Below, piece by piece: positions 1 to 30,250 of a DNA stretch of 64,000 nucleotides. Within the stretch, counting starts at the first letter, position 1, and each line of letters starts with the position of its first letter. Source of the DNA: Candidatus Parcubacteria bacterium. Lineage in GTDB: Bacteria > Patescibacteriota > Minisyncoccia > Phycocordibacterales > Phycocordibacteraceae. The notes under the pieces are model-generated. The model did not search any database. It was not told the origin of the DNA and saw only the letters and a list, made by a program, of their open reading frames with translations. Location: the NCBI GenBank assembly GCA_034666125.1, contig JAXDML010000010.1:52260-116259 (forward strand), written 5' to 3'. A program made the translations under genes and the position numbers.

Positions 1-325
1 GTCGTTCGCGAAGCTCATGGCGCTTGTGGGGGAGGGAACGCTTTCCTCGCGTGGCGCGAAGGATACGCTCCTCTATATGCATGAGAAGGGAGGGGATCCG
101 GAAGACGTGGCGCGCGCCGAAGGGCTTATCCAGGTGAACGATACCGAAGCGCTTCGCGAAGCGGTGCGCACGGTCATACGCGAGCACGAGGCGGTGGCTG
201 CAGAGTATCGGTCGGGGAAGGACGCCGCGCTCCAATTCCTCGTAGGGCAGTCGATGAAGGCTACCCGAGGGGCGGGGAATCCGGGAGCCATAAAAGATCT
301 CCTGATTGAAGAGCTGAGCAAGTAG
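1..325 (+). CDS. gatB: Asp/Glu-tRNA amidotransferase subunit B, C-terminal (GatB/YqeY) part; 5' end lies outside the window
   Basis: Frame 2 is open from base 2. Translation ...FAKLMALVGEGTLSSRGAKDTLLYMHEKGGDPEDVARAEGLIQVND...KATRGAGNPGAIKDLLIEELSK matches the conserved GatB C-terminal tail. Stop TAG at 323-325. Confidence 0.8.
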   Translation, partial: SFAKLMALVGEGTLSSRGAKDTLLYMHEKGGDPEDVARAEGLIQVNDTEALREAVRTVIREHEAVAAEYRSGKDAALQFLVGQSMKATRGAGNPGAIKDLLIEELSK

Positions 326-385: not shown

Positions 386-1324
386 ATGTTGATATCTATT
401 CTATTCGAGACGAGAAACCCTTATACTACATGTATGGATGAACTTACTATCGGAGACAAGATCTACATCTCGTCCAAGCGTGCAGCAGCGATTACGGGCT
501 ACGCTAAAGACTATGTGGGCCAGCTATGCCGGGAAGGGCATGTAGAGGCGAAAATGGTTGGCCGAAGCTGGTACGTGCTCGAAACAAGCATACGTGAGCA
601 TCGCTTCGGAAAGACGGAGGAAAAGCTCCCTGGCGCCGCCGAACAGGACGCGGAGAACGCAAGGATCGCCGCAGCGACCGGTGCGCTTATCGATGTCACC
701 GATGCCGTTGTTTCGCATATGCCGGAAACCTGGGAAGCGTCGAGGTATCTGCCGGAAGAGGCGCCAAGGATGCCCGAGTTGGCGCCTCCTGCTCCCGTAC
801 TCGAGGCCCGTGAAACTATGCAGACATTAGATATGTCGGAAAGCCGGGAATCGCTTGCGGAAATGCAGGCCGCCTGGAAAGCATGGTTCGAGGGTGAACG
901 CGAGCCGCTTTTGGAATCTCCTGAGGTGATTGACGCCAGGGAAGAAGAAAGGGAAGAAGAAAGGGAAGAAGAGGTGATCGAAGACGAGCCGGAGCTTCCT
1001 GAGGCTTCAGAGGAAGCCGTACCGGTGATGGTCCACAGAATTCCCGAGGAACGTCCGCAGACCATCGAAAGGCCCCAAAGGGCGGCCGTTCGGCCTCAGC
1101 TTTTTCAGCAGCCTGTTGCCGCCACGCCGCCACGCCGCGCGCGTCGTCCAAAGTCACGCAAGAACAGCGGATCAGGTTCGAATCTCGTCGTCGTAGCCCT
1201 TATGGTCGCCTTTGCCGGGATAGTTATCTCAATCGGGATCATAGGCTCGGGATTCGCGGACACCTATGTGCAAAGCAACGCCATTACGAAGTTTCTCGGA
1301 GGCACGAGTTCTATAAGTAAGTAG
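386..1324 (+). CDS. Membrane-tethered HTH protein: N-terminal excisionase/MerR-like HTH (HTH_17-like), acidic EEREEEREEE repeat, Pro/Arg-rich linker, C-terminal TM anchor; probable true start ATG 434 (MDELTIGDK)
   Basis: 'ISSKRAAAITGYAKDYVGQLCREGHVEAKMVGRSWYVLETSIREH' fits the excisionase-family HTH consensus. Hydrophobic stretch LVVVALMVAFAGIVISIGIIGSGF near the C-terminus, preceded by RRARRPKSRK. N-terminus is paralogous to the N-terminus of the giant ORF at 1839. Confidence 0.6.
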   Translation: MLISILFETRNPYTTCMDELTIGDKIYISSKRAAAITGYAKDYVGQLCREGHVEAKMVGRSWYVLETSIREHRFGKTEEKLPGAAEQDAENARIAAATGALIDVTDAVVSHMPETWEASRYLPEEAPRMPELAPPAPVLEARETMQTLDMSESRESLAEMQAAWKAWFEGEREPLLESPEVIDAREEEREEEREEEVIEDEPELPEASEEAVPVMVHRIPEERPQTIERPQRAAVRPQLFQQPVAATPPRRARRPKSRKNSGSGSNLVVVALMVAFAGIVISIGIIGSGFADTYVQSNAITKFLGGTSSISK

Positions 1325-1838: not shown

Positions 1839-4800
1839 ATGTCCTCGCTCCTTACTAACGATCTCATCTCAACGAAAGAGGCCTCGATCATTTCGGGATA
1901 CAATCCCGATTACCTCGCGCGTCTTTGTCGTGCCGGAGTGATTGCCGGAAAGAGGATCGGACGCACCTGGTGTCTCGAGCGAACGTCGCTCGACACGTTC
2001 ATTCGAACGCAACAAGCGCATAAGCAGGAGATTGCGCATACGCTTTCGGAAACGCGGAGCCGTGAATACCGCGAGGCGCATCAGGAGCCTGTCACTCCGG
2101 GAGTTCCTTCAGCAGAAAAAGCTGCTCCTGCCGCGTACGTGCCGCTCGTGCCCGCTCGAAGGAGTGTTCCGATACACCTGCGTCCCGGCTTCGCCTTCGC
2201 TCTCGCGCTCTGGGTGGTCGCTTTGAGCGGATATGCGTCGGTCTCGGACGCTTTTATAGGTACGGCACGGGATGCAGGCCGGCTTGCATACGATCTTGCG
2301 GTGGTGCGGGCCATAACGTACGACGGGCCGGCAGTATTCCTCGCCTCACGCGACGAGCCGGCGCCTAACGTGCCCGACCTGCATATTCCCGATCAGGACG
2401 TTCTTGTCGCGGAAGCCGCGCAGGTAGCGGCAAGCGATGTCACGCTTCCGGACATGGCTACGCGCCATAACGAATCGCGCAGCGCCGCAACGTTGGCGGG
2501 ATCGGTCGGCGCGTCGCGCATCGCTGCCGTATCGGCTTTCTTCCGTACGCCCGGCGCTTCGTTCGCGATGTTGCGCGATACCGGCGTCGGCGCATACGTG
2601 CGCATGGGAGCATCGATCGAGCGTTTCGCGCATGACACGCTCGTGCAGTATGCGACGACGGTTGAATCTGCCGGAGCGGATTCGCTCGAGCTCGCTTCCG
2701 CCGCGCGCGACATGGCCGCCTTCGCGCCCGCGCGCGCGGAGGCGATACGCATCGCGTACGAACGCGGCATCTATGCTTGGGTCGAAAGGACGCCGGATGT
2801 CGCACGCGGGATCACCGAGAGGACGCTCGCGCTCGGCGACGCGCTCGGGGGCGGGGCGACGCTCGCGCCAAACGTCGTCGGGAACGCGTCGCGCGATGTC
2901 GCGATCGCCGTGGCTGCGGGCATTGCCACTCCTACGCGAGGCCCTGTCGATAGCACGACGCCGACCGGGATAGCTGCTGCTTCCGACGCGCATCTCGCTG
3001 CGGGAGTCGCGGCCGCACCGGCAGCGCTCGTGCGCAGCCTGGAGCAGTCGGTCTTCTCCGCCGTGCGCGCCGCGCATATCGCGCTCACGGGAGGCGTACG
3101 CTTGCTTGCCGGTCTTTTCGACGACCTCTCCGTGGCGCTTACGTCTGCCCCCGAGAGGATCGTGACGATACTCACCCCGGCCGCATCCGGTCCAGGCGCC
3201 TATACCGCCACTACCACGAACACGACGTACGTCGACCGGTTCATCGGGGACACGACCGTCGTACGTAACTACTACCCGCAGACGTTCCTCGGGGGCGTGA
3301 GCCGGGAGGAGATAGACGCGCGGTTCACCGCCTTCGACAGCCTCATGCGCCGGAATATCGAATCTGCGCTCCGAAGACGGGGCGGAGGAGGGGGCGGCGG
3401 AGGCGGAGGCGGCAGCATTTCTCTGAATGATCCCACCTTCACGGGTACCCTCACGACGGACGACGCGGTCGTGAACAATAACCTTTCGGTAGGGAACGAT
3501 ACGACCATTGGCGGGAACCTGGATGTCGGCGGCGACGCGAATGTCACCGGCACGCTCACCGTGGGGTCCTTCAGCGTCTCGAACCTTTCGGCGAACAATA
3601 CGGTCGTGGCACCCCGCTTCATCGGCACGTCCACGAGCGAAGCGTCGGTATTCCCGAACATCATCGCGACGACGTCGGTCACGGACAACGCGACGTCCAC
3701 GAACCTGTACGCGACGAACTTCGGCATCGGGAACTCGTACTTCACGTCGCTCCTCGGCAACGGCCTCGTGAACACGGGAGGCATGCTGTCAGTATCGACC
3801 TCGTCGCTCGCGAGCGGATTCTTCCAGAACGGCGGGAACGCCTTCGGCGTCCCCGCCGTTCTCGGCACGACCGACAATCAGCCGCTCTCGCTCATCACGA
3901 ACAACACGACGGCTGCGACCATCCTCGGGAACGGCAATGTCGGCATCGGCACGACGTCGCCCTTTACCAAGCTCTCGGTCGGCGGCGATGCGTACGTCGG
4001 CGGGAACGTGACCGCGACCGGCACGGCGACCGTGCAGGGCCTTTCGATCGGATCGCTTTCCGGGTTCCTCAAGGCGACCGCCGGCACGGTGGCGACCTCG
4101 CTCGTGTCGCTCGCCTCCGACATCACGGGCACGCTTCCGGTCGGGAACGGCGGCACGGGCTCGACTTCGCTCACCGGACTCCTCGTCGGCAACGGCGCGA
4201 GCCCGGTGCAGACGGCATCGGTCACCGCGCCGCTCGTACTCACCGGCACGACGCTTTCCATAAACCAGGCGAACGCGTCGCAGGACGGTTATCTTTCTTC
4301 GACCGACTGGAACACTTTCAACAACAAGATCGCCTCGACCTCGCTTTCGGGTGGCACGGGCATCTCGTACAACCCCGCGACCGGCGTCATCACGAACACG
4401 GGCGTCACGTCGACGACAGGCGACTGGACCGGCACCTTCGACGGGCAGGAGGGAAGCTACTATCTCGCGAACTCGTTCAGTACGACCTCCGCCGCGTACT
4501 TCCTCTCGCAGAACGGCGGCTCGGCATTCTCGACCACTTCGGCCAATTACTGGCTCTCCACGAAATCCACGTCCGACCTTGCCGAGGGCTCGAACCTGTA
4601 CTACACCGACGGACGCGTAAATACGTTCATCAATGGATCTTCCACGATCCCAAAGACATACACGAATAACGTATTCACAGGCGGAAATACGTTCACGAAC
4701 GCCAGTTCCACCGATCTCTACGTAGCAAACACCTTCCGCGGCGCCGGCCTCACTGCCTGCAACACTTCGGCCAGCAAGCTTCTCTATGACGCCGTTACCG

Positions 4801-7800
4801 GCCAATTCAACTGCGGCGCGGATGCGGGAGCGGGCGGCGGTATCACTGCCATCGGTGCCCAGTACTCGCCATATCAGACAGGCTCAACCCAGACCTTCGC
4901 GACCACGAGCGACACGAACATAGGCCTCGTGATCACGTCGGCGGGCGACACCCATACCTTCACCCCGACCTTCACGGGCACGCTTGCGGTGCCCCGCGGC
5001 GGTACGGGAAGCAGCACGCTCTCCGGCATCCTTCTTGGCAATGGTGCGGGCCCCGTACAGACGCTCGGTATCGGTCCGGGACTCGCGCTTGCGGGCGGAA
5101 CGCTCTCCGTTTCCACGACTTCCTTCTCCGGTCCCGGCTCGAATTTCAATGCGGACCTCCTGGATGGCCAGGACGGGACCTACTACCTGGACCGCGCCAA
5201 CCATACCGGTACTCAAACCGCTTCGACCATCAGCGACTTCAATGCTGCAGTGAATACGTATATACACGGATCGACCACTATCCCGAAGACGTATACCGCG
5301 AACACCTTCACGGCCACGCAAACGTTCGGAAATCTCGTTGCGACGAATGCCACCACCACCTCCCTCGGCCTGAACAGCGAAACCTTCACCGACCTCACCG
5401 GTTCGGGACTTCTCAACGTCGGCGGTACTTTGACGCTGGACCGCACCGGGGACTGGACCGGCACGCTCGACGGACAGGAAGGCGCATACTACCTCGCCCG
5501 CGCGAATCACACGGGGACGCAACTCGCGTCGACCATCAGCGATTTCTCCACGACCGCCCGGGGGCTTTTCGCCGCCACCTATCCAATTCAATACGACAGC
5601 GGCACGGGCTTGTTCAACCTCGCTTTCGGCACCACTACCTCGAATACCTGGGCGGGCACGCAGACCTTCAACAACCTCGTCGCCACCAACGCGACCACGA
5701 CCAGCTTCGGCATCAACGGGGAGACCTTCACCGATCTGACGGGCTCGGGACTATCGAACGTCGGAGGGGTCCTCACGGTCTCCACATCCTCGCTCGCGAA
5801 CCTGAATGCCGATCTCCTCGATGGGCTCGACTCCACGTATTTCCTCGCGAACTCCTTCTCGACCACGTCCGCGAACCACTGGCTCACGACCAAGTCGACC
5901 ACGAACCTCGCTGAAGGATCGAACCTCTACTACACCGACGCACGGGTGAATAGCTATATACACGGCTCGACGACAATACCGAAGACCTATACGAACAATA
6001 CGTTCACTGGCACCCAGACCTTCAACAACCTCGTCGCCACGAACGCCACGACCACCTCGCTCGCCGTGGGCACGGACTACATCACCGACCTTACGGGCTC
6101 GGGCCTCACCATCACCGGAAATGCGCTCACATTGGATCGCACCGGGGACTGGACCGGTACGTTCGACGGCCAGGAAGGTACCTATTATCTAAACCGAGCG
6201 AATCACAGCGGTACGCAGCTCGCTTCCACGATCAGCGACTTCTCCGAAGCCACCGACGACCGCGTCGCCGTCCTCATACAAAACGGCACTGGCATCTCAT
6301 GGTCATACAACGACGGGGCGAACACTTTCACGCCGACGGTCACGCTCGCGCCGTTTACGACCACGAATCTCGCTGAGGGCAGCAATCTGTATTACACGGA
6401 CGGACGCGTTGCCTCGTACATCAACGCTTCCACCACCATATTGAACGACTCTACCGAAGCGGGACTTGAGACCTTCCTCACCGATGTCGCGAATGTCTTC
6501 ACCAACAACGATGGCGCGCTCTCAGACGACGACCTCAGCAATAATTCGATAGAGGATCTCTCCGACGTCGCCGCGATGACCGAGAACTATGGCGACCTCC
6601 TCGGGTGGAACGGTACGACCTGGACGGACTTCGCGACGAGTTCGCTAGGACTTATTACTTCAGCGGTCCAGAATATCGGTCCCGCCGGCCAAACTGCGGA
6701 CGGCCCCACGGTCACCTTCGCCACTACCACCTCAACCACCAACGGCATCACTTCGGCCCTCACCGTCACTGGCTCGGGAGATACCCTCACGTTCACCCCG
6801 TCGCAATCAGGAACCTTAACGGTTCCGGGCGGCGGCACCGGCGCCTCCTCCTTCACCGCCGGGAATCTCATATATGGCGCAGGCACCGGCGCGCTTCAAA
6901 GCGTCGCGACCTCCTCGGTCTCAAGCGGCACCGGCATCTCCTTCACTGGAACCCCTGGCGCGCTTGTCGGCGGAACGCCGCTCACGATCAGCAATACCGG
7001 CGTGCTCTCCTTCAACGGACGCACGGGAGCTGTTACACCGCAGTCAGGCGATTACACGACGACCATCGTGGCCGAAGGCACGAACCTTTACTACACCGAC
7101 GCACGGGTGAACAGCTACATACACGGCTCGACGACAATACCGAAGACCTATACCGCGAACACCTTCACTGCGCTTAATACATTCAGTGCGGGCGCTTCGA
7201 CTACCCAACTCACCGCTACTGGCAACGCGTATCTCGCGACGGCGGGAGGGAACGTAAGCGTCGGCGGCACTACTGCAAGCGAGAAGCTCACCGTCACCGG
7301 CAACATACTCTCGAGCAATCTTGCAGGCGTCGGCAACCGGTGCGTATACGCCGATCTCAACGGCGTCCTGCGCGTGGCGGCAGACAACTGCGGTCTCGCA
7401 GGCGCAGGCGGCGACGACCTGGGCAATCACATCGCTACGCAGAACATCCAGCTCAACAACAACTGGCTCTCGAACGACGGAGGAAGCGAAGGCGTCAGCA
7501 TAGATAACAGCGGAAACGTGACTATGTCCGGCGATGCTTCGGCGGCATCGTTCACCCGCGGCGGCGATACGATCACCGATTTCACGGGTACGGGACTTAC
7601 GGTGATAAGCGGCGCGCTCACCGTCTCGACCTCGTCGCTTGCGAACCTGAATGCCGATCTTTTGGATAGCCTTGATTCGACGTATTTCCTTGCCAATTCC
7701 TTCAGCACTACTTCCGCCAACTACTGGCTTACCACCAAGGATACCGACGATCTCGCGGAGGGAAGCACCAACCTCTACTACACCGACGGCCGCGTGAACA

Positions 7801-10800
7801 CCTTTATCGCGGGTTCCACTACCATCCCGAAGACCTACACGAACAACACATTCGGAGGCACCCAGACCTTCAACAACCTTCTCGCCACGAACGCTACGAC
7901 CACCAGCTTCGGCATCAACTCCGAGACCTTCACCGACCTCACTGGTTCAGGACTCCTCAACGTCGGCGGCACTTTGACGCTGGACCGCACGGGAAACTGG
8001 ACGGGGACGTTCGACGGGCAGGAAGGAACCTACTACCTCGCACGCGCGAATCACACGGGGACCCAACTCGCGTCGACCATTAGTGACTTCAACGATGCGG
8101 TCGCCAACTATGTCAACGCTTCCTCGACTATCCTCAACGACTCCACCGAAGCTGGCCTCGAAGCTTTCCTCACGGACGTCACGAACGTATTCACGAACAA
8201 CGACGGCGCGCTCAACGACGACGATTTGACCAACAATTCGATCGAAGACCTCTCTGATGTCGCGACCATGACCGAGAACTATGGCGATCTCTTGTACTGG
8301 AACGGTACCGCATGGGCAGACATTGCGACGAGTTCCTTGGGACTCCCAACCGCGAGCATCACGAACATCGGCCCTACCGGCCAGATGGCCGACGGTCCGA
8401 ATGTGACGCTTGCGACTTCAACGAGCGCATTCAACGGCCTCACTTCTTCGCTCACCATCACAGGAAGCGGCGATACTCTTACCTTCGTTCCGGCACTCTC
8501 CGGCACCCTCAACAACGCTGGCCTCACTAACTCCACCGTCTCGTACGGCGGCGTGACGCTTTCTCTCGGTGGAAGCGATGCAACTCCGGCCTTCGACCTG
8601 ACCGATGCGACGAACCTTCCGATCGTCGGCGGCACGACCGGTACTCTGACGGTCCCGCGCGGCGGCACGGGCCAGGTTTCGTTCACCGCCAGCAACCTTA
8701 TATATGGAGCAGGTACGGGGGCACTCCAAAGCGTCGCTACTACCACCGTCTCAGCAACCGGGCCCCTCTCCTTCACCGCGAATCCCGTCGTCATCGGCGC
8801 ATCCCCGATCACGCTCTCTCTGGGGACGGTCGATATATCGTCGAATACGAACCTCGCGGCGACGTATCCGATCGTTCTCACCGGGGATACGCTCTCCCTC
8901 GCCTTCGGCACCACCACCTCGAACACCTGGGCGGGTACCCAGACGTTCAACAACCTCGTCGCGACGAACGCCACGACAACATCCCTCGGCCTTAACGGCG
9001 AAACCTTCACCGACCTCACTGGCAGCGGCCTCTTGAACGTCGGTGGCACTTTGACGTTGGACCGCACCGGCGACTGGACGGGGACGTTCGACGGGCAGGA
9101 GGGAAGTTATTACTTAAATCGTGCCAACCATACTGGTACTCAAGCTGCTTCCACGATCAGCGACTTCTCCGAAGCCACCGACGACCGTGTCGCCGTCCTC
9201 ATACAAAACGGTACTGGTATCAGCTGGTCATACAACGATGGCGCGAACACCTTCACGCCGACCGTGACCCTCGCACCGTTCACTACCACGAACCTCGCGG
9301 AAGGCACGAATCTCTACTACACCGATGCACGGGTGAATTCCTTCGTGCACTCTTCGACCACCATCCCGAAAACCTACACTGCGAACACCTTTACGGGAGC
9401 ACAGACGTTTAACGGCGGACTCACCCTCGGAACCTTGAACGGCCCGCTGCAAGCGAACAACGGAATTGTCTCTGCCACAACCAGCATTGGCGTTCTGTAT
9501 GGAGGAACCGGCCTCACTATCGCGCCGACGTACGGACAGCTTTTGGTAGGGAATTCAAGCGGAGGGTACACCCTTACCTCAACCTCTTCACTCGGGCTTA
9601 TCACCCAGGCAGTCCAAAACATCGGCCCGGCAGGGCAGATGGCCGACGGGCCGAACGTCACGTTCGCTACTTCGACTGCGTCCTTTAACGGCCTTACCCA
9701 GGGCATAACCATCACCGGAAGCGGTGACACCATCACGTTCACGCCATCCCTGTCGGGTACTCTCGGTGTCGGCGGGGGAGGCACCGGCGCTGCCTCCTTT
9801 GCGTACGGTCTCGTGCTTTCTCCGGGAGGCACCGGAGCCCTCACCAATATAGCGACTTCCTCCCTCGGCCTCCTCACAACGAACGTCGCCGAAGGAAGCA
9901 ATCTGTACTTCACCGATGAACGCGTCGACGACCGCGTCGCCGTCCTCATACAAAACGGTACGGGCATCTCCTGGAGCTACAACGACGGTGCCAACGCCTT
10001 TACGCCGACCGTGACCTTGGCGCCCTTTACGACGACCAATCTCGCAGAAGGCAGCAATCTGTATTATACGGATGCACGTGTCGCCTCATATATAAACGCC
10101 TCCACCACCATACTCAACGACTCCACAGAAGCTGGTCTTGAAGCCTTCCTCACGGACGTCACGAACGTGTTCACCAACAACGACGGTACCTTAGCCGATG
10201 ACGATCTCACCAACAACAGCATCGAAGACTTGAGTGACGTCGCGGCAATGACCGAGAACTATGGCGATCTCCTCTATTGGAACGGCAGTGCGTGGGCGGA
10301 TATCGCCACTTCCTCGCTCGGACTCCTCTCCACAGCCGTCACTAACATCGGTCCTGCGGGCCAGATGGCGGACGGCCCCACAGTCACCTTCGCCACCACC
10401 ACCTCGACCACCAACGGCATCACCTCGGCGCTCACCATCACGGGTTCGGGAGATACCCTCACCTTTACTCCGTCGCAGTCGGGAACTCTCACTGTTCCTG
10501 GAGGCGGCACGGGAGCCACCTCCTTCACCGCCGGGAACCTCGTCTATGGCACGGGAACCGGCGCACTTCAGAGCGTGGCGACGACGACTCTCTCGGGAAA
10601 TTCCCAGATCGCGCTCTCTCAGCCAGTGGTCGTGATCGGCGCGTCACCTTCTGTCCTCTCTATCACCGCCGACTCCATCGGAGACGCGCAGCTCGCCTTC
10701 AACACCGGGCAGAACCTGACGACCGCGTCGAGCCCGACGTTCGCGAGCCTTACGCTCACGAATCCGCTCGCGGTAACCTCAGGCGGTACCGGGTGGGCGG

Positions 10801-13800
10801 CCATACAGGCAGGTGCGATCCCGTATGGAAACGGTACGGGAGCGCTTGCGACCACGACTGCGGGCACCAACGGAAATATCCTCGCCCTCTTGAACGGCAT
10901 TCCGACCTGGACCTCGACCTCGACATTCCTGCTTGAGACGGAAGTCGATACCGAAGCCGAACTCGAGACGCTCCTCACCGATGTTACGAACGTCTTCACG
11001 AACAACGACGGCGCTCTTGCTGACGACGACCTCACTAATAACTCCATCGAAGACCTCTCGGACGTCGCCGCCATGACCGAGAACTATGGCGACCTGCTCT
11101 ATTGGAACGGAACCGCGTGGGCGGATATCGCCACTAGTTCCCTCGGCCTCGTGACAAGCGCGCTCACCTCGATCGGTCCGGCAGGGCAGCAACAGACCGG
11201 TCCTGCCATCACCCTCGCAAGCTCCACTGCAGGAACGGACTTCACCATCACCGCCGCAGGGAACACAGTGACGTTCAATCTCCCGACCGCTTCGGCTACG
11301 AATCGTGGCTTGCTATCAAGCGCCGATTGGTCGACCTTCAACGGCAAGGAGAACGTGCTTTCCTTCACCTATCCGCTGGTGCGCACGGTTAACAACATCT
11401 CCCTCGCCTTCGGCACGACGACCTCGAACACCTGGGCGGGCACCCAGACGTTCAACAACCTCGTCGCCACGAACGCAACCACGACTTCCTTCGCTATCGG
11501 AAGCGATTACATCACCGACCTCACAGGCTCCGGTCTCACGGTGACCGGAAACGCACTCACCCTCGACCGCACCGGCGACTGGACCGGTACCTTCGACGGC
11601 CAAGAAGGCACGTACTATCTCGCACGCGCCAATCACACCGGGACGCAACTGGCGAGTACGATCAGCGACTTCTCCGAAGCCACCGACGACCGCGTCGCCG
11701 TCCTCATCCAGAACGGCACCGGCATCTCGTGGAGCTACAACGACGGCGCGAACACGTTTACGCCGACCGTGACCCTCGCACCGTTCACCACAACCAACCT
11801 CGCGGAAGGCACGAACCTCTATTACACGGATGCACGGGTGAACAGCTATATCGCGGCCTCCACCACCATCCCGAAGACGTATACCTCTAATACGTTCACC
11901 GGGCTCCAGACCCTGAACGGAGGACTCACGCTCGGCACACTCAACGGCCCGCTCCAAGCGAACGTGGGCGTCGTCTCCGCAACGACCAGCATTGGCGTTC
12001 TGTATGGAGGAACCGGCCTCACTATCGCGCCGACGTACGGACAGCTCCTCGTGGGCAATGCCTCGGGAGGGTATACGCTGACGGCGACGTCGAGCTTGGG
12101 ACTGGCCTCCGCAGCGACCGCCTTCATCCAGAACGGCAACTCGTTCGGCGCGACCGCCGTACTTGGTACCAACGACGCGAACGACCTCCAGTTCGAGACG
12201 AGCGGTACGACGAAACTCACGATCCTCCAGAACGGCAACGTCGGCATCGGCACGACGACTCCGTCGAATCTTTTGCATGTCTTTTCTTCCTCCGCAAGCC
12301 CCCGTATTCGCGCAGAAACTTCACTCACGAGCGGATCGAGCGGATTTACCGCAGCAGGAGAAAGTACCACGGGTTTCGCGTCGTTCAGTTGGAATAATTC
12401 AGGCGCAGCGAATTCGACTTTCTTAACGTTACCGAATGCCGGACTCGTACGGGCAGGTTCAGGAGCATCCGGTGGGCTGGTTCTGGTCAATGAAAATACT
12501 TCCGCGCCCATTATCTTTGCGACGGGAGGAAGTTCCTTCAGCAACGAACGGTTGCGCATCGACAGCGCAGGCAATGTCGGTATCGGCACGACTACGCCGT
12601 TCACGATGCTTTCGGTAAATGGGAACATAGCAGGGAATCATCTCGTCCCGAACGGCGCCTACACGGATAACCTGTCTCCGTACGATCTCGGCGCGATCGG
12701 GAGCCGATGGAATGCGCTCTGGGCCGGAACGCTCAACATCGGCACAAGCACGTGGAGCATCAATAACGGGAGCGATGGAAGGCTCAGTGTGTTCGATGCG
12801 GCATCAGGCGGCGGCACTGAACGATTCTCAATACTTACGAACGGTAACGTCGGCATAGGCTCGACCACGCCATTCGCCAAACTGTCGCTTGCTGGGGGCA
12901 ATTTCTGGCAGACAGCCGGTGATCCGGTGATCGCAAGCAGTACTGACACGACCGCTGCGGTGAACGGAGTCTATGTCGCCGGCAGATATGCCTACCTGAC
13001 GCCGAACTCCGCGAGCCCCGGGCTCGTCATCATGGATGTTTCCAATCCGAGAAGTCCCGCTCAGGTCGGCTCAGCTAACACGACCGGTAACGCTAAGAGG
13101 GTCGTTGTTTCCGGAAGGTACGCCTACGTGCTCTCGGCTCGGCTACACATCTTCGACGTCACGAATCCGGCGAGCCCTTCCGCGGTGGGGAACTACAATC
13201 CCGGTGTCAACATACCGAACGACATATGGGTGTCGGGCAAGTACGCTTACCTCGCACGCAGTAACTTCAGCACGGGCGCCGGTTCCCTGGCCATCGTAGA
13301 CCTTTCGAATCCTGCACTCCCGATAGCGGTCAGTAGTATAAACTCTCCGGACAGCACACGGCCTTTCAATTCCATTTATGTATCGGGCAGATATGCCTAC
13401 GTCGGAACGACGGAAGTATCCGGCACCACGGGCAGGCTCTATATTTATGACATTTCGAATCCGACCGCACCGAGCCTTGTTGGAACCTTCAACGCGACCA
13501 ACCGCGTGACCGGCGTCTATGTTTCGGGCAGATATGCCTACTTATCAGGACTCGGAACGACGTCGGGGCTCGAGATCGTGGACGTTTCAAATCCCGCGTC
13601 CCCAGCGCTTGCCGGTTCCTTCAACACGGCGAATGACGCTATGCGCGTACAGGTGTCGGGCAACTACGCCTACATCGCCGAGGCCGGGACCACGGACGGT
13701 ATCGTCGTGGTCGACGTGTCGCAACCGGGCAGTCCAGTGCAGGTCGGGTCCTACACCACCGCCAATAGCGCCAATAACCTCTACGTGTCAGGCAAGTACA

Positions 13801-16800
13801 TCTACGTCGCGACCAACGGCACTACTGGCGGATTCCAGGTACTTGATGCGGGAGGAGCGCAGCTGCCGCTTGCAAGTATAGGAAATATAAATACCAACCT
13901 GCTTACAGTGGACGAGAACGCGAACTTCGGCGGCGAAATCTATGCGCAAGGCGGCATCAACGCCGGTATCTCCGGCATCTTCTCGCGTGGCACAATCTCC
14001 GCGTACGTCGCATCGTCGACTCAAACCAATCCCACGGTCGCCAACTTCATGGGTGGTTCGGTCGGCATCGGTACGACAACGCCATATGCGGCGCTTTCGG
14101 TGGTCGGGATCAACACCGCCGTGCCGACGCTCTCGATCAAACCGGCGGCGTCGCAAACAGCAAATATTCTCGACCTTTACACGTTCGGCTCACTTACGTC
14201 AGTCATCGATGCGGCGGGTAACTGGGGCATCAGTACCACCTCTCCCTGGAAAACGCTCTCGGTCGGTGGTGATTTTTCGCTCACTGGCGCGTTCTTTGAT
14301 AGTGGAGCATCCTCGGGGACGAACGGCATGGTGCTCCAGACCACCGGGTCGGGCACGCAATGGGTCGCCACTTCGTCGCTCGGCATCAGCGCCGGCCTCA
14401 CGGGCTCCGGCTGCTGCGGTCAGGTCGCGTATTGGAACGGTGCGAGTTCCCTTACCGGTGACGCGGCCTTCACGTTCGACGGCACGAACCTCTCGCTCGG
14501 TACCGGCCAGTACCTGGTCACCGATTCGGAAGGCGCTCCCGGCTACTCCTGGACGGGGGACACGACGACCGGCATATATCACGCGGGTGCCAGCACGATC
14601 GGCTTCTCGACCGGCGGGATCGAACGGATGCGCATAGACGGGAACGGCTATCTCGGCATATCGACGACATCGCCGGGACAGATGCTATCGGTGGAAGGAG
14701 ACGCATACATAAGCGGCGCCACGGTGATCGGGGATACCGGGCTTCCGCTCGTCGGTCCAGCGCTTACCGTGAACGGCTTTACGGGCATCGCTTCCTCATC
14801 GCCCTGGGGCCTGCTCTCGGTGAATCCGAACGCAATCGGTACCGCTCCCTCCTTCGTCGTCGGTTCCTCGAGCGCAACGAACTTCATTGTCGCGAACGGC
14901 GGCAGCGTGGGGATCGGTATGACGGCACCCTCATCGCGGTTCCAGGTGGCCGATATCAATAGGTTGTCGGGCACGTCGGTAAGTTCGGCCGGTTTTGGAA
15001 ACACGAATCTCTCGGTCTACACGACTGATGCAGCAGCTACCAACGTGGGAGCCGTCATTGGGCTCGGAGGAGCGAACCTATACGGCGGTCTGAAGGGCGC
15101 AAGTCAGAGCGGCACTTCAGCCGGATACCTTGGCTTCTATACGAATTCCTTCAGTATCATCACTGGGAACACGTTCGCAGAGCGAGCCCGTATAACGTCT
15201 AGCGGCCAGCTTGGCATCGGAACGACCACGCCGTTCGGCCTGCTGGCGGTCGCCGGGCCTATCGCTGGCAATCATATCATCCCGAATGGTCCATATACCG
15301 ATAATCTTTCTGCGTACGACCTTGGCGCAACCGGAAGCCGCTGGAACGCGCTGTGGGCCGGTACGGTCAATATCGGCACGAGTACCTGGAGCATCAATAA
15401 TGGCAGCGATGGACGACTATCGTTCTTCGACGCCGCATCGGGCGGCGGGAACGAGCGCCTCTCCCTGCTTACGAACGGGAATGTCGGCATCGGTACGACT
15501 AGTCCTGCGGCCCGTCTCGCCATTACAAGCAATGCAGCCATTACAAGCGATAGCATCGATACGTACTTAGCAAACACCGTGAATGCTGGAACTGTGTCGG
15601 GTACGGATCGACTTATTACTGGCAACTATACTACGCTTTCCCCTACAGTTACGCTTGAAGGCGCTACCCTAAGCGCTATCGCAAATAAAACACTAGTTAA
15701 TGCTGGAAACGTTACTCTTGGCAGTACCGCGCTCTCTGGTGTTTCAGGAAGTCTCATTGGAGACTCTATAGAAGTTACCGGGAGCCCCATATTTAACGAC
15801 CCGGATGGTAACGACGAGCTGAATGCCACGTTTATCGGAACCCAATCTTATGTCAACCTTGTACCCTCGGTTACCAGTGTCTCAGGCGGTAACCTAGCTT
15901 CGTATGGAGGATTGTTCACTAACTCTTCTTCCAACAGTAGCGGCAACCTTGGTGCCGGCGCGTACGGAGTTTCAGCGTTAGTAGGTGGCAACCCTCTTGT
16001 TAATGGATATCGTTACGGTTTTTATTCCACAGTTTCAGGTACATCTAACGAAAACACGGGTTACTGGGGAGCCGTTAGTGGAGGCACGGGTTCAAACTAC
16101 GGCTCAACTCTTATTGTCAGCGGTGGAGCCGTCAGTAATTACGGAAACTACGTGGGCATAAGCGGAGGTAATAACAATTACGGGTCGTATATATCCCTAC
16201 AAGCTAGTTCTACCAACTATGCGATTTATGCGACAGGTGGCGCGCAAAGCTATTTTTCTGGGAACGTCGGTATTGGTACCACCACTCCGTGGGCAACACT
16301 TGCGGTAAATCCAGTCGCTGGGGGAGCATCGAACGCTTTCGCCATCGGCTCTTCAACAGCTACGAGGTTCTTGGTGACTAACGGTGGAAATGTCGGTATC
16401 GGCACTACCACCCCAGGCACCCTCCTCTCGCTTGGAGACACCGGTGCGAACACAATCAATATTTCGGCTACGGCGACCTCGACATTCGGCAGCGGTATCA
16501 ACATCCGGACGGGCTGCTTTGCGGTGAACGGAGTGTGCGTCGGCGGAGGCGGAGGCGGGACGATAAACTCTGGAACGACCGGCCAGTTCCCGTACTACGC
16601 CGCGAACGGCACGACGCTCACGGCGACCTCGACGCTGCTCGTATCTACGGCATCGAACGTCGGTATCGGTACCACTACTCCTTCCGCACGACTCGCCATC
16701 ACGGGTACCGGTACGGGTACCGGACGAGCCTTCGCCATCGCGAACTCGTCCGACGCTGAACGGCTTTCGGTTCTCGATAACGGCAGTACCGCCATCATAA

Positions 16801-19017: not shown

Positions 19018-20037
19018 ATGATCCGTGTCGCAATCAACGGTTTCGGGCGCATCGGACGCGCCTTCGTGCGCGAGGCGTGGAGTGATCCAGACATCACGCT
19101 CGTTGCCGTGAACGATCTCGGCTCGATCGAGAACCTCGCGTATCTCCTCAAATACGACACGGTGTACGGCCGCGCACCTTTCCCGGTGTCGGTTGCCGGC
19201 GGTTCGCTGGTCATCGACAACGAGCCAGTGAAGTTCCTGTCCGAGAAGGACCCTGCGGCGCTCCCGTGGAAGGAACTCAATATCGACGTGGTCGTGGAGT
19301 CGACCGGGTTCTTCGCCGAATACGAGAAGGCTAAAGCGCATATCGACGCTGGTGCGCGTCGCGTCGTCATCACCGCGCCTGTAAAGGACGAGTCACCGCT
19401 CGGCGCGACCGTTCTCATGGGACTCGACGAGGAGGGGGAGTCGGAGAAGTTCAAGACCTGCCCGATAACGAGCAACGCCTCCTGCACGACCAACTCCGCG
19501 AGCCCGGTCATCGCGATCATGGATGAGGCGATCGGCATCGAGAAGGCCATCCTCTCGACGACCCACGCGTATACCGCAAGCCAGTCGATCGTCGACGGAC
19601 CGTCGAAGAAGGACATGCGCGAGGGAAGGGCGGCAGCGCAGAACATCGTCCCGACCTCGACCGGCGCCGCCATCGCCGTTACGAAGGCGTATCCGTCCCT
19701 GGCCGGGAAGTTCGACGGCATCTCGCTGCGCGTTCCCGTTCCCGCAGGTTCCATGGCGGACATCACGTTCCTCGCGAAGCGTGATACGACCGCGGAAGAG
19801 GTGAACGATATCCTGCGGAAGGCAGCCTCGGACCCTCGGTGGAAAGGCATCTTCAGCGCGACCGACGAGGAGCTCGTCTCAAGCGACATCGTGGGACAGC
19901 GCTTCGCGTCGATCGCTGACCTCTCCATGACGCGCGTCGTGGACGGGAACCTGGTGAAGGTGCTCGCCTGGTATGACAACGAGGCGGGATATACCCACAC
20001 GCTCGTCGAGCACGTGCGGAAAGCGGGGAAAGCCTAG
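19018..20037 (+). CDS. gap: Glyceraldehyde-3-phosphate dehydrogenase
   Basis: 'MIRVAINGFGRIGRAFVREA...SNASCTTNSASPV' (catalytic Cys motif); full-length 339 aa. Confidence 0.95.
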   Translation: MIRVAINGFGRIGRAFVREAWSDPDITLVAVNDLGSIENLAYLLKYDTVYGRAPFPVSVAGGSLVIDNEPVKFLSEKDPAALPWKELNIDVVVESTGFFAEYEKAKAHIDAGARRVVITAPVKDESPLGATVLMGLDEEGESEKFKTCPITSNASCTTNSASPVIAIMDEAIGIEKAILSTTHAYTASQSIVDGPSKKDMREGRAAAQNIVPTSTGAAIAVTKAYPSLAGKFDGISLRVPVPAGSMADITFLAKRDTTAEEVNDILRKAASDPRWKGIFSATDEELVSSDIVGQRFASIADLSMTRVVDGNLVKVLAWYDNEAGYTHTLVEHVRKAGKA

Positions 20038-20079
20038 CGTTCACTGTTCCTACACGCCGTATCCGCTCTACTCATCCTA

Positions 20080-20589
20080 ATGACTGATCCTGTGACCCAA
20101 CCCAAGCAGATCGTATTCATCGCCGCCGACCATGCGGGCTTCCGCCTCAAGGAGGCGCTCAAGGAGCACCTGGCGATATTGGGGCAGGACGTGCGCGATT
20201 GCGGCGCATTCGAACCCGACCCGGAAGACGATTACCCGGACTTCATGACGCCGCTCGCAAAGTCGGTGGCGGAGACTCCTGGCGCGTACGGCGTCATGTG
20301 CGGCGGCAGCGGGCAGGGGGAGGCCATGTGCGCGAACCGCGTATCCGGCGTCCGCGCCGCCGTCTTCTATGGACCTATCTCCGCGAAGGAGGTACTCGAC
20401 CGCGAAGGCGGGTTCTCTGAGGACGGATACGACGCCGTGCGGCTGTCCCGTCGCCACAACAACGCGAACGTCCTTTCCTTGGGCGCACGATTCGTTTCCA
20501 TACTCGAAGCGACCGAAGCCCTCCGCATCTTCCTTTCCACCGAATACACGGCCGACCCGCGCCACGTGCGGCGGCTGGGGAAGTTCTAA
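20080..20589 (+). CDS. rpiB: Ribose-5-phosphate isomerase B
   Basis: 'IVFIAADHAGFRLKEALKEHL...GVMCGGSGQGEAMCANRVSGVRAA' matches RpiB/LacAB family motifs. Confidence 0.9.
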   Translation: MTDPVTQPKQIVFIAADHAGFRLKEALKEHLAILGQDVRDCGAFEPDPEDDYPDFMTPLAKSVAETPGAYGVMCGGSGQGEAMCANRVSGVRAAVFYGPISAKEVLDREGGFSEDGYDAVRLSRRHNNANVLSLGARFVSILEATEALRIFLSTEYTADPRHVRRLGKF

Positions 20590-20622
20590 ACCTAGGAAGT
20601 GCGTTGCTAGTACACTAAAGAC

Positions 20623-20874
20623 ATGTCGGAGGTTCAATTCACAGAGGAGTCCTTCCATACAAGCACTAAAAAGAAGCCTTCTCGCGGCCTTACCGCGCTC
20701 CTTATCCGTGCCGGCTTTGCGAAAGACGAGCGTCAGGCAGGCATGCTCATGCTCGTGGTAGCGGCTATCTGCATCGTTGCGGCGATAGCCTTCATCGCGC
20801 TCTCCACCGGCGGCCCAGGGCCGCTTTCCCCGGAGGAGCGGCGTCAGCTCGAGGAATCGACGCGCCCTCGCTAG
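20623..20874 (+). CDS. Small single-pass membrane protein, unknown function
   Basis: Hydrophobic segment MLMLVVAAICIVAAIAFIALS. Stop overlaps the start region of the pilin gene (TAG 20872-20874, ATG 20877). Confidence 0.4.
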   Translation: MSEVQFTEESFHTSTKKKPSRGLTALLIRAGFAKDERQAGMLMLVVAAICIVAAIAFIALSTGGPGPLSPEERRQLEESTRPR

Positions 20875-20876
20875 CC

Positions 20877-21374
20877 ATGGTCACGTTGCGCCAGCGCGGC
20901 TTCACCCTCATCGAACTCCTCGTAGTGGTAGCTATCATAGGTCTCCTGTCTTCGATCGTCCTCGCTTCGCTCAATGCGGCCCGGATAAAGGGAAGGAATT
21001 CAGCTGTGCAGCAGGAGATGCGCCAATTCGCGACCCTGCTCGAACTCGAGTTCGACGATACTAAGTCGTACAACGGCCTCAAGTGGACTTGGATGTATAC
21101 GCCTGCGGATTGCACGAACGCCTTCTCATCCGCGAGCCGCTACGTGGCGAACGCGCGAAGCATATGCGCGAACATCGTCTCGAACAGCCGTGCACTCTCG
21201 ATACAATCTCCGCAAAGCAATCCTACCGCCCAGATGGTGACCTATTCGATCATGGTGATGCTCAAGGACTCCGATATCTACTACTGCCGCGGAAGCAACG
21301 GCGCATCTTCATGGAACGTACCCATCTCGGGTCCGACGAACAACCCCGGCTGCTACAACGACCCCACGCTCTAA
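20877..21374 (+). CDS. Type IV pilin / pseudopilin (prepilin-type N-terminal cleavage-methylation domain)
   Basis: 'LRQRGFTLIELLVVVAIIGLLSSIVLASL' class III signal peptide; C-terminal Cys pair (YYC...GCYNDPT). Confidence 0.75.
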   Translation: MVTLRQRGFTLIELLVVVAIIGLLSSIVLASLNAARIKGRNSAVQQEMRQFATLLELEFDDTKSYNGLKWTWMYTPADCTNAFSSASRYVANARSICANIVSNSRALSIQSPQSNPTAQMVTYSIMVMLKDSDIYYCRGSNGASSWNVPISGPTNNPGCYNDPTL

Positions 21375-21426
21375 TACGCACCGCGTCCCGGATGCTTTGA
21401 AGTAAAAGCGCTATACTTCTTATGTT

Positions 21427-22140
21427 ATGGTTGCAATCATCCCTGCCATCCTGCCGACCTCGCGCGAAGACCTCGACGCGCGGCTTAACCGGCTCCACGG
21501 CATCACGGAGCGGGTGCAGATAGACGTCGTCGACGGGCGGTTCGTCACGCCCGCGTCCTGGCCCTATGCGCAGAAAGTGGACGTGCAAAAGCTCACGGAA
21601 GATTCGCTTCCCGAACTCGGCTCGTTCCGCTTCGAGATCGACCTCATGGCGGAAGAGCCTGAGAAGTCCATCGGTCCCTGGATACGGGCAGGAGCGACGC
21701 GCATCACGGTGCATGCTGAAACCACGCGGAGACTCCCCGACCTCATCCGCGACTTCCAGGTCACGTACGGGCATGACAAGGGCTTCGCGCCGGGGCTCAT
21801 CGCCTTCGGGCTCGCGATCAACCTCGCGACCGACACCTCGCTCATCGAGCCGTACCTCGACCAGTGCGACTACGTCCAGTTCATGGGCATCGCGCGGATC
21901 GGGAAGCAGGGCGAGCCGTTCGCTCCGGCAGTCCTCCCGAAGATCCATGCGTTCCATCGCAAGTACCCCGACATGCTCATACAGGTCGATGGCGGCGTAT
22001 CCCGCGAGACCGCGCCGCGCCTCCTTGCGGCCGGCGCGTCGCGGCTTATCGTGGGCTCCGATCTCTGGAACGCCCCTAACCTCGGACGCGAGATGAAGGA
22101 GCTCTGCGACATCGCGGAGACGCGCGGGCTCTACACGTAA
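21427..22140 (+). CDS. rpe: Ribulose-phosphate 3-epimerase family
   Basis: 'IPAILPT...RVQIDVVDGRFV' and 'IQVDGGVSRETAPRLLAAGASRLIVGS' resemble Rpe motifs. Confidence 0.75.
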   Translation: MVAIIPAILPTSREDLDARLNRLHGITERVQIDVVDGRFVTPASWPYAQKVDVQKLTEDSLPELGSFRFEIDLMAEEPEKSIGPWIRAGATRITVHAETTRRLPDLIRDFQVTYGHDKGFAPGLIAFGLAINLATDTSLIEPYLDQCDYVQFMGIARIGKQGEPFAPAVLPKIHAFHRKYPDMLIQVDGGVSRETAPRLLAAGASRLIVGSDLWNAPNLGREMKELCDIAETRGLYT

Positions 22141-22160
22141 CGCGTGGTATCCTTTCGTTG

Positions 22161-23018
22161 ATGGCCCTTACGGACTCCGAAGTACAGGCGCTCGAAGAAA
22201 GGGCGACAGCGATACGCGAGACGATACTCTCCATGCTCGTATCGGCGGGAAGCGGGCACACCGCAGGTCCGCTCGGCATGACCGACATCTTCACCGCCTT
22301 CTATTTCCATATCCTCGCCCACGATCCGAAGAGCCCTGACGATCCCTCACGCGACTATCTGATACTTTCGAACGGACACATCGCCCCGGTACGATACGCG
22401 ACGATGGCGCATGCGGGATACTTCCCGGTAGAGGAGTGCCAGACGCTCCGCAAGTTCGGCTCGCGCCTGCAGGGGCATCCGGAGCGCACCAAGCTCCCCG
22501 GGCTCGAGACCACGTCCGGGCCGCTCGGTTCAGGACTTTCGCAAGCCTCCGGTATCGCGTACGCGCTCCGCATGGACGACAAGAAAAACCGGGTGTATTG
22601 CTTGATGAGCGACGGCGAGCAGCAGGAGGGGAATACGTGGGAGGCCGCAATGTTCGCGGGAAAGTATAAGCTTTCGAATATGACGGCGGTCATGGACCGC
22701 AACAATATCCAGATCGACGGCATGACGGAGGACATCATGCCGCTCGAGTCCCTGCGCGCGAAATACGAGGCCTTCAACTGGCACGTGCTCGAGGTGAACG
22801 GACACGACATCCCGGCCTTCATCGCAGCGGTCGAAGAGTCGAAGGCCATCTATGAGAAGCCGACCCTCATCATCGCGCATACCATCCCCGGCAAGGGCGT
22901 GAAGGAGATCGAGTTCGACTATAGATGGCATGGCAAGCCGCCGTCTAAGGAAGAAGTCGTGCGGTTCTTGAAGGAAATTCGATCGCTGAAAGGCCGGGTG
23001 CCGGGAGAATATGCATAG
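22161..23018 (+). CDS. tkt: Transketolase, N-terminal (TPP-binding) subunit
   Basis: 'GSGHTAGPLGMTDIFTAFYF...LSNGHIAPVRYATMAHAGY...GHPE' is the TK N-terminal region; stop after about 286 aa. An upstream TTG at 22158 is also possible. Confidence 0.9.
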   Translation: MALTDSEVQALEERATAIRETILSMLVSAGSGHTAGPLGMTDIFTAFYFHILAHDPKSPDDPSRDYLILSNGHIAPVRYATMAHAGYFPVEECQTLRKFGSRLQGHPERTKLPGLETTSGPLGSGLSQASGIAYALRMDDKKNRVYCLMSDGEQQEGNTWEAAMFAGKYKLSNMTAVMDRNNIQIDGMTEDIMPLESLRAKYEAFNWHVLEVNGHDIPAFIAAVEESKAIYEKPTLIIAHTIPGKGVKEIEFDYRWHGKPPSKEEVVRFLKEIRSLKGRVPGEYA

Positions 23019-23412
23019 TATGGAAGCACTTGAGGACGAGATTCGCGAATACCTTGTCGAGCGCAAGTGGGACCAGCTCCGGCCCGGCGACCTCGCCAAA
23101 TCGGTCGCCATAGAGGCCGGGGAACTCCTGGAGCTGTTCCAGTGGGACAATCCGTCGCTTGCCGAAGTGAAGGCGAATCCGGAGCGTCTCGCGGAGATAC
23201 GGAAAGAACTTGCCGATGTCCTGCTCTACTGCCTCGATATAGCGGTGCTGCTTGAGTTTGATACGGTACAGGTCGTAAAGGACAAGCTTGAGAAAGTGAG
23301 GCACAAGTATCCTGCAGCGCTCTTCAAGGATCGCGCGGAGGGGACCGACGCCGGTACCGAGGATATTTATTGGCAGATAAAAAGAGAGCACCGCCAAAAA
23401 GGAACATCATGA
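23011..23412 (+). CDS. MazG-like nucleotide pyrophosphohydrolase domain protein
   Basis: 'EYLVERKWDQ...SVAIEAGELLELFQW...LADVLLYCLDIAVLLEFD' is a small all-alpha MazG/NTP-PPase-like fold. Overlaps tkt-N by 8 nt and tkt-C by 3 nt. Confidence 0.6.
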   Translation: MHSMEALEDEIREYLVERKWDQLRPGDLAKSVAIEAGELLELFQWDNPSLAEVKANPERLAEIRKELADVLLYCLDIAVLLEFDTVQVVKDKLEKVRHKYPAALFKDRAEGTDAGTEDIYWQIKREHRQKGTS

Positions 23413-24398: not shown

Positions 24399-24595
24399 GC
24401 GCCATATCAGTATCTATATGGGTGCGCTCCTTATAACGGTTTTGGGTGCCGCAGCGACAGTAGCGATTACACGCACGGCAGCAGAGGTCGATTCTTTTAT
24501 GTATACGGATACATATTTTGCGCCTACAGGCGAAGGGTCCGAGAGTGCTGAATAGTCGAGTTCGAAACCTACTCTCTCAACAAATAAACAGAAGA

Positions 24596-24635
24596 CCGCC
24601 CACCGAGAAAGGGGACCCGGTGGGTCGGCTTTCTG
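24596..24635. terminator. Stem-loop (cccaccg/cggtggg, 12-nt loop) with T-rich flank on the minus strand; likely terminator of minus gene 24668..24901, possibly also of the tkt operon
   Basis: Read directly; the minus-strand reading is followed by tcttctgtttatttg. Confidence 0.4.
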
Positions 24636-24667
24636 CGATGAGCGGGTGCTCAGCGACTTTGGCTTCC

Positions 24668-24901: not shown

Positions 24902-25040
24902 CCCAGCCTCCTCACATTCGAGTTTCAGAACGTCATCACCATATCAATACTCTCAACTCTTGTCTACGACAAGAAGGCGGGATGTCTTTGGGAAGTTCCA
25001 ACATCGTCCCAGACTGCCAGCAATAAGTTAGAATTTCTGA

Positions 25041-25508: not shown

Positions 25509-25538
25509 ACAACCCGCAAGACTCCCGGCTACTTCGCA

Positions 25539-26375: not shown

Positions 26376-26387
26376 AGAAGCTAACCG

Positions 26388-30235: not shown

Positions 30236-30250
30236 CAGGCTACAGACTTG

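Follow-up and report, generated by a model that had tools for sequence, protein, structure and literature searches.

In this study, we propose that the interleaved direct repeats of a giant gene of Candidatus Parcubacteria are, in all likelihood, the nucleotide shadow of old in-frame copies of protein modules that form the shaft of a 5,704-residue surface fibre, and that they are not a currently active recombination hotspot in this allele. The gene lies within a stretch of 64,000 nucleotides of contig JAXDML010000010.1 (assembly GCA_034666125.1, positions 52,260 to 116,259), hereafter the window, to which coordinates refer unless stated otherwise. A first-pass annotation had read the repeats as a tandem array, as a potential hotspot for length variation and as a risk for short-read assembly. 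We infer from analogy with known protein families that the product is one tail-fibre-like surface fibre of a Parcubacteria/Paceibacteria-type bacterium belonging to the candidate phyla radiation (CPR), with a probable exposure on the cell surface.

A repeat search of the window yielded 19 families of direct repeats between 3 and 17 kb. Self-blastn of the gene returned 58 off-diagonal high-scoring segment pairs (HSPs), of which 57 have an offset divisible by three, and a stricter self-blastn of the whole window retained 47 HSPs within the gene, none of them inverted. Because codon-shuffled versions of the gene gave no HSP in any of five controls, the repeats are real and far above chance, and the off-diagonal lines that a dot-plot-type check should reveal are present. 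Neither a module copy outside the gene nor an inverted copy was found by self-blastn of the 64-kb window. At the protein level, a fragment-based self-scan located the repeat-rich part at about residues 540-3480. Hidden Markov models (HMMs) built from eleven seed motifs resolve the array into at least 11 types of modules, designated a to k, which measure 60-231 bp and occur in 2-9 good copies each, in place of the three families of 170-230 bp with 4-5 copies that had been described. The array itself was found where it had been announced (4400-12100), and the module map confirms its interleaved order:

e a a b c - h i - e c d e j d a b c d e f b g h i - b c - d a b c d e g h - i - j d e f b c k h i b f b g h i - i - g h j d e f b c k

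The repeats and their larger composites, the latter delimited by self-blastn and the module map, are the following:

1839-18953, plus strand: giant open reading frame (ORF) of 5704 amino acids, uninterrupted, which holds all repeats of the first-pass annotation
4416-12104, plus strand: array in which 11 types of modules (a-k, 20-77 residues) are interspersed, at residues 860-3422 (module HMM map)
5709-6242, plus strand: composite C1 (d-a-b-c-d-e), paralog of C2
7560-8090, plus strand: composite C2 (d-a-b-c-d-e), paralog of C1
6243-6914, plus strand: composite B1 (f-b-g-h-i), paralog of B2
9918-10586, plus strand: composite B2 (f-b-g-h-i), paralog of B1
8862-9599, plus strand: composite A1 (j-d-e-f-b-c-k), paralog of A2
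11367-12104, plus strand: composite A2 (j-d-e-f-b-c-k), paralog of A1
9480-9541 and 11985-12046, plus strand: 62-bp exact tract within module k, a putative trace of short gene conversion
6228-6277 and 11658-11707, plus strand: exact tract of 50 bp that spans the junction of modules e and f, with a 41-bp version at 9147-9187
12579-12863, plus strand: distal duplication, copy 1, from the beta-helix-type half, with the pattern GNVGIGTTTP...YDLG...RW
15213-15497, plus strand: distal duplication, copy 2

The organization is not tandem. Tandem Repeats Finder, run with a period limit of 500, reported only trivial repeats of 9-12 bp in 4400-12100 and did not recover the array. The sole local head-to-tail run consists of three diverged units of c or j followed by d, which start at 5276, 5618 and 5972 (spacing of 342 and 354 bp) and share 63-67% identity. 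Instead, blocks of several modules recur at a distance. The largest composite duplication, A1 versus A2, is covered by a 685-bp HSP with 78% nucleotide and 88.5% amino acid identity, a synonymous divergence (dS) of 0.87 and a ratio of nonsynonymous to synonymous divergence (dN/dS) of 0.15. B1 and B2 align over 657 bp (79.6% nucleotide and 90% amino acid identity, dS 1.04, dN/dS 0.08), and C1 and C2 over 541 bp with 73% nucleotide identity and one indel. The duplication at 12.6 and 15.3 kb, which had been reported as 240 bp long, is indeed present and spans 285 bp (75% nucleotide and 83% amino acid identity, dS 1.6). It represents a repeat class separate from modules a-k, since it consists of GNVGIGTTTP-type segments in the distal half of the protein.

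Within the module array (4000-12000), the GC skew lies between -0.16 and -0.18, strongly negative compared with about 0 elsewhere, and coincides with a composition rich in Thr, Gly, Ser and Asn (T 19%, G 12%). This negative skew results from the composition of the repeats and is not a replication signal.

The age of the copies can be read from their synonymous sites. Among 115 module pairs, the median nucleotide identity amounts to 70.8%; 19% of the pairs reach at least 80% and none reaches 90%. The identity of 80-90% given previously thus fits only module f, whose copies share 80-87%. In twelve ungapped pairs, nucleotide identity is 72-80% (long composites) with an amino acid identity of 80-93%, while third codon positions agree in only 46-57% of cases. 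Nei-Gojobori estimates for these pairs are 0.87-2.1 for dS, 0.06-0.17 for dN and 0.03-0.17 for dN/dS. A same-codon test, which is independent of saturation corrections, gives the same picture: where two copies encode the same residue, they use the same codon in 45-59% of the codon pairs versus 43-44% expected from the codon usage of the region. For the pair at 12.6 and 15.3 kb, same-codon use is 0.45 versus 0.43 expected. The combination of a conserved protein and near-random synonymous sites implies that the duplications are old and protein-constrained. At synonymous sites these ancient copies have become almost random, whereas purifying selection has preserved their amino acid sequence; the DNA identity of 70-80% is for the most part a by-product of the conserved protein and codon bias. 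The same purifying selection between the internal copies shows that the giant reading frame is truly coding.

Exact identity between the copies is confined to short tracts. The longest measure 62, 50, 41, 35, 35 and 33 bp, and these six are the only ones to exceed 30 bp. In a run test in which amino acid differences were kept fixed and the synonymous same/different labels were permuted, the 62-bp tract corresponds to 20 consecutive identical codons (P=0.0002) and the 50-bp tract to 16 (P=0.0008). A weaker run of 13 codons has P=0.009 and the nine other pairs are unremarkable, leaving two to three of twelve pairs significant. The 62- and 50-bp tracts suggest traces of occasional past short gene conversion, not ongoing homogenisation. 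With copies that are 20-30% diverged and exact tracts of this size, the window allele offers little substrate for homologous recombination, which points to long-term stability and speaks against the hotspot as a present-day property of this gene.

A different dynamic emerges across the family. Homologs of the array are proteins of 1.4-4.4 thousand amino acids, whose named sources are almost all metagenome-assembled genomes (MAGs) of Candidatus Paceibacterota, Parcubacteria or Patescibacteria, and many of which carry an HTH_17 N terminus, an S74 domain or LVIVD repeats. The HMMs of modules a-k recur across 120 homologous giant proteins in very different counts and orders. The grammar is nevertheless restricted (b-c-k, d-e, g-h-i, f-b): of the 121 adjacent pairs that could be formed, the family uses only 50, and among the 20 adjacent module pairs of the window gene 19 also occur in homologs. 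Internal 100-residue windows with at least 95% identity are found in 37 of the 120 homologs and indicate recent duplication. In the homolog P0021, 73% of the protein lies within such repeats, with six repeats of about 560 residues that are essentially identical as protein. Two further homologs, P0006 (3,826 residues) and P0016 (3,064 residues), are syntenic orthologues of the window gene, with a downstream GAPDH that is 72% identical. They share about 81% nucleotide identity at their termini and flank, yet their arrays are differently built. P0006, and not P0016, has a 446-bp in-frame duplication with 100% identity (1801-2246 versus 2410-2855 in the gene coordinates of its locus, L001) and a 1,152-bp duplication at 92%; the identical P0006 sequence is present on four contigs. 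Unlike the allele of the window, those of P0006 and P0021 would be true recombination and assembly hazards. These comparisons indicate that module turnover is real at the species level and over evolutionary time. The proposed in-frame gain and loss of modules therefore holds across family and species, as seen in the 120 homologs and in P0006/P0016, and is not supported for the window allele today, given a dS of 0.9-2.1 and tracts of at most 62 bp. A close relative of the giant gene was not found in protein, genome and metagenome collections. Its N-terminal 560 residues matched one distant protein only (35% identity) and no locus among genome or metagenome contigs, and a literature search did not find a paper on this Parcubacteria fibre family.

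Outside the array, the giant protein is composed of elements that are familiar from tail fibres, combined with an unusual N terminus:

1866-2012, plus strand: N-terminal HTH_17-like segment, residues 10-58, predicted cytoplasmic (Pfam PF12728 E=0.007; phrog_19913 E=1e-5)
2187-2246, plus strand: predicted single membrane anchor, residues 117-136 (Kyte-Doolittle scan)
12966-13883, plus strand: seven LVIVD blades (beta-propeller), residues about 3710-4015 (Pfam and blade list)
17688-17858, plus strand: Peptidase_S74 intramolecular chaperone domain ("chaperone of endosialidase"; PF13884 E=3e-13, above the gathering score)
18711-18950, plus strand: Pro/Glu-rich low-complexity C-terminal tail (PEPEPT...) with tandem repeats of 6-54 bp

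The segment at residues 117-136 is the sole strongly hydrophobic one of 19-20 residues in a Kyte-Doolittle scan of the giant protein. At 1866-2246, a helix-turn-helix (HTH)-like domain of the excisionase/MerR type (residues 10-58) is combined with one transmembrane helix and followed by a predicted extracellular fibre of about 5,100 residues. This N terminus of HTH_17 plus helix recurs in many Paceibacterota homologs, which bear the NCBI label "helix-turn-helix domain-containing protein", and many homologs have a precomputed PF12728 N terminus. The propeller is well supported by LVIVD (PF08309, E=8e-51, six stretches, above the Pfam threshold) and Beta_propel (E=3e-5), with seven blades by motif count; in an NCBIfam scan it matched only choice_anch_B, below threshold. 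PF22632, which is listed for some homologs, was rejected as a spurious summed match (BphC_D1) without any passing stretch. The protein contains 11 copies of the motif [NGQKS]-x-G-[IV]-[GS]-T-x-x-P, typically as NVGIGTTTPxxxL, a GxVGIGTxxP capping-type motif of putative beta-helix segments. The S74 domain starts with the only SDxxxK motif of the whole protein (SDARLK, S5284-K5289, 17688-17705), in which S5284 is the predicted self-cleavage site; 420 residues remain from there to the C terminus. The Pro/Glu-rich tail is located downstream of this predicted site, and similar tails close the syntenic proteins of loci L004 and L006. Cysteines of the extracellular part are few and occur in close pairs (residues 974/992, 1835/1851, 4893/4900 and 5264/5280), suggesting local disulfides; the last pair sits directly before the S74 cleavage serine.

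Profile searches and sequence searches of the PDB connect the protein to fibres as well. The C-terminal half is matched by the tail-fibre families phrog_9942 (E=8e-29), phrog_18345 (E=2e-21) and phrog_1980 (E=3e-8), and PHROG families of phage structural proteins match modules e, f, b and g. The segment directly after the a-k array matches the Bdellovibrio fibre Bd2133 (PDB 8ond, phmmer E=9e-7) and 8ojn, while a sequence search of the PDB with the array itself gave no match.

How far do these data also fit other explanations? The most serious one is the currently active hotspot, in which unequal recombination often adds or removes modules within populations and so generates fibre-length or antigenic variants. 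It would account for the in-frame offsets of the HSPs and for the exact tracts, whose size is about what recombination needs, judged by the minimal processing segments of RecA. The two significant runs of identical codons, the different arrays of the syntenic orthologues with a perfect 446-bp duplication in one of them, and the homologs with internal repeats of at least 95% are also in its favour. Yet no copy pair in the window reaches 90% nucleotide identity, the copies are interspersed and not tandem, and the high dS combined with near-random codon choice implies that no duplication or homogenisation has occurred for a very long time. We therefore consider an active hotspot improbable for this allele. 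A related possibility is that selection favoured differences at the DNA level, stabilising a long repetitive gene against deletion, in addition to mere age. Such codon diversification is suggested by a protein identity of 80-96% alongside almost random codon choice, and by the apparent minority state of family members with near-identical repeats. Time alone explains the pattern, however, and a remaining surplus of shared codons is to be expected from simple decay, which makes this possibility somewhat less probable still.

Two more explanations concern the assembly and the origin of variation. Giant genes rich in repeats are known to be problematic in assembly (10.1101/2023.11.21.568195), and an array that was collapsed, expanded or chimeric after short-read assembly could in principle simulate the observed order. 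But the 17.1-kb ORF is uninterrupted, each composite copy has its own substitutions with a dN/dS well below 1, and the module grammar agrees with that of independent homologs. Moreover, the copies differ at 20-30% of positions, and both ordinary reads and larger assembler k-mers exceed the longest exact repeat in length; the risk of an assembly collapse, raised by the first-pass annotation, is accordingly low, and an artefact is very unlikely. Surface fibres of CPR bacteria are known in general as targets of diversity-generating retroelements, and the protein could plausibly act as an antigen or bind a receptor, so that the repeats might be taken for cassettes that donate and accept sequence, or for the target of such an element. 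Against programmed variation of this kind, with the antigenic variation that had been envisaged, stands the lack of silent cassettes and of inverted copies in the 64-kb window. The differences between copies are also spread over all codon positions with a purifying signature, and are not adenine-specific in one variable region. No reverse transcriptase was detected among the approximately 38 ORFs of the window that were scanned with Pfam, a set that does not comprise every ORF. We give this explanation the least credit of all.

The reading of the repeats as old module copies of a fibre shaft has to face several adverse observations as well. The 62- and 50-bp tracts, together with a remaining surplus of shared codons (z up to 4.6), show that the copies have not evolved wholly independently, and some recombination between them may have taken place. 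The HTH_17 match to PF12728 scores below the Pfam gathering threshold, and an N-terminal signal peptide was not found in the giant protein. Finally, the AlphaFold2 monomer of one b-g-h-i unit is poor, with a mean predicted local distance difference test score (pLDDT) of 61.8 and a predicted template modelling score (pTM) of 0.30 for an alignment of 22 sequences; module h alone forms a confident three-stranded beta-meander. A poor monomer model would be expected for an intertwined trimer, yet it neither supports nor contradicts one.

The closest known counterparts are the mosaic adhesive trimer (MAT) fibres of Bdellovibrio bacteriovorus, which are tail-fibre-like, surface-displayed trimers with diverse tips (Caulton et al. 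2024, PMC10769870). In this species, 13 of 21 MATs end in an S74 domain with the self-cleaving SDxxxK catalytic motif, and MATs combine a signal peptide and a conserved, beta-rich N-terminal domain of about 130 residues with recurring beta-helix capping loops of the consensus V-G-G/N-pi-X-X-P-X-X-X-L (PMC10769870). S74 processing has been demonstrated for Bd3182, a MAT of 922 residues with a length of about 550 Å (PMC10769870); by rough extrapolation, the window fibre would measure some 0.2-0.4 µm. Like the S74 subgroup of MATs, the window protein is encoded by a chromosomal gene and has a C-terminal S74 domain with SDxxxK. The likeness extends to the match with the solved Bd2133 fibre and 8ojn, possibly to beta-helix segments with a capping motif of the V-G-x-G...P-x-x-x-L type, which is one residue longer in the window protein than in the MAT consensus, and to mosaic, swappable tips, as both S74 and non-S74 endings occur at one syntenic locus in relatives. 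There are clear differences too. The window protein is 5.7 times longer than the MATs of about 1,000 residues, its N terminus consists of an HTH-like domain and one transmembrane helix without a signal peptide, and it includes the a-k array and an internal LVIVD propeller. Unlike in S74 MATs, 420 residues follow the cleavage serine. The bearer is a CPR bacterium, in contrast to a predator with demonstrated prey invasion.

In phage tail fibres, as in MATs, the S74 domain brings about trimerisation and afterwards excises itself at the SDxxxK serine. Mosaic exchange of modules is the classic mode of tail-fibre evolution. The window protein shares the S74 domain and the PHROG tail-fibre matches with tail fibres and tailspikes that have an intramolecular chaperone, such as the K1F endosialidase and the T5 L-shaped fibre. 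It differs from phage tail fibres in its location outside a phage or prophage, its predicted N-terminal membrane anchor and its far greater length. Streptococcal arrays of the Alp/Rib or M type are head-to-tail and unstable, with near-identical DNA copies. With these contingency proteins the window protein has in common the in-frame repeat units in a (predicted) surface protein, but in its gene the copies lie interspersed and have diverged by 10-50%. Other proteins that comprise several thousand residues and are made of repeated units are staphylococcal Embp (PMC9302970) and Giant1-5 of Apilactobacillus kunkeei. In the latter, positional homologues are reported to diversify via short intragenic recombination (PMC12863079), to which the 50-62-bp conversion-like tracts of the window are comparable. 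The folds and domains of Giant1-5 and Embp are unrelated to those of the window protein, and their tandem repeats are regular, with one or two types of unit, as opposed to a combinatorial mixture of 11 types.

The genomic context is that of a chromosome. The neighbours of the giant gene are housekeeping genes, encoding GatB, GAPDH, RpiB, Rpe, a split transketolase, a PfkB kinase, L25, S2, RF, PheT, GyrB, ThrRS, DnaE and NusB, which implies that the giant gene is not a prophage fibre gene; a prophage tail fibre was rejected for this reason and because the locus is syntenic across species. A C-terminal fragment of GatB (17-325, plus strand) precedes an ORF of 312 residues (386-1324, plus strand). 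The latter, directly upstream of the giant gene, resembles the HTH-like N terminus of the giant protein. It is 41% identical to a 232-residue HTH_17 gene upstream of the orthologue P0006, and the window and locus L001 have the gene order GatB, small HTH gene, giant gene, GAPDH in common. The closest GAPDH matches (76-82%) are from MAGs of Parcubacteria, Paceibacterota and Kaiserbacteria. A giant frame also precedes GAPDH in the six closest GAPDH-anchored loci, with a length ranging from at least 515 to at least 3,155 residues. Five of these six frames match the window protein at 30-56%, with collinearity, where present, only in the last 400 residues or so, and that of L006 (515 residues) gave no match to the window protein. 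The 12 kb downstream (region 19018-32000) are collinear with relatives at 50-86% amino acid identity, compared with scattered matches of 21-56% in the giant gene (loci L003, L004, L005, L007 and L009). The giant gene is thus a hypervariable island within a conserved backbone. Tips vary at the same syntenic locus, with S74 in some relatives and a "CDxWSF...F" ending in others.

Several other features of the window were recorded. An ORF of 165 residues (20877-21374, plus strand), two genes downstream of the giant gene, has an N-terminal methylation motif of the type IV pilin kind. Transketolase is split into an N-terminal gene (22158-23018) and a C-terminal gene (23370-24398), both on the plus strand, with a possible small ORF in between. 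Only two pairs of direct repeats occur outside the giant gene in the 64 kb: 54214-54312 versus 54469-54567 (99 bp, 74%) and 25410-25498 versus 27616-27704 (89 bp, 76%). The latter pair brackets two adjoining paralogous Exo_endo_phos genes on the minus strand (25539-26375 and 26388-27245).

Taken together, the data are compatible with the following model. The HTH-like N terminus would stay in the cytoplasm, with a single helix anchoring the protein, and about 5,100 residues would project from the cell as a trimeric fibre that folds starting at the C-terminal S74 chaperone. The chaperone would then cut itself off at S5284, leaving the tip exposed. The Thr/Gly/Ser/Asn-rich a-k modules would be the length-setting elements of the shaft. 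Their array very probably arose when blocks of 0.5-0.7 kb, as seen in the A, B and C pairs, were duplicated in frame and shuffled, presumably by unequal recombination or slippage. Across species, module number, module order and tip domain are remodelled at this locus. Trimerisation, S74 self-cleavage, surface display and a role in the attachment to a host or prey are inferred from what is known of the respective families. That a giant surface protein is built of repeated modules is ordinary and already known. What is new is a CPR-bacterial MAT/tail-fibre-like S74 fibre with an HTH and transmembrane anchor, an internal propeller and a combinatorial shaft of 11 modules without a solved relative.

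For the scanning of genomes, this case implies that repeats with 70-80% nucleotide identity in a giant gene can be wholly a by-product of conserved protein modules. The same-codon test (0.45-0.59 versus 0.43-0.44 expected) tells such by-products from truly recombination-prone arrays. To our knowledge, essentially nothing is known about the host-contact machinery of Parcubacteria-type bacteria outside Saccharibacteria. We tentatively suggest, as a possibility that we hold to be less probable than not, that the GatB-GAPDH locus is the host-attachment fibre locus of Kaiserbacteria-like Paceibacteria. It would encode a chromosomal, membrane-anchored counterpart of tail fibres with a shaft drawn from a common set of at least 11 modules and re-composed between species by in-frame recombination, and fibre length and tip would set the host within reach of the episymbiont; the cytoplasmic HTH might couple the fibre to DNA or signalling. 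As a candidate for the attachment fibre of a Parcubacteria-type bacterium that has not been cultivated, the gene is a concrete target for trimer prediction, cryo-electron tomography and correlation with host range.

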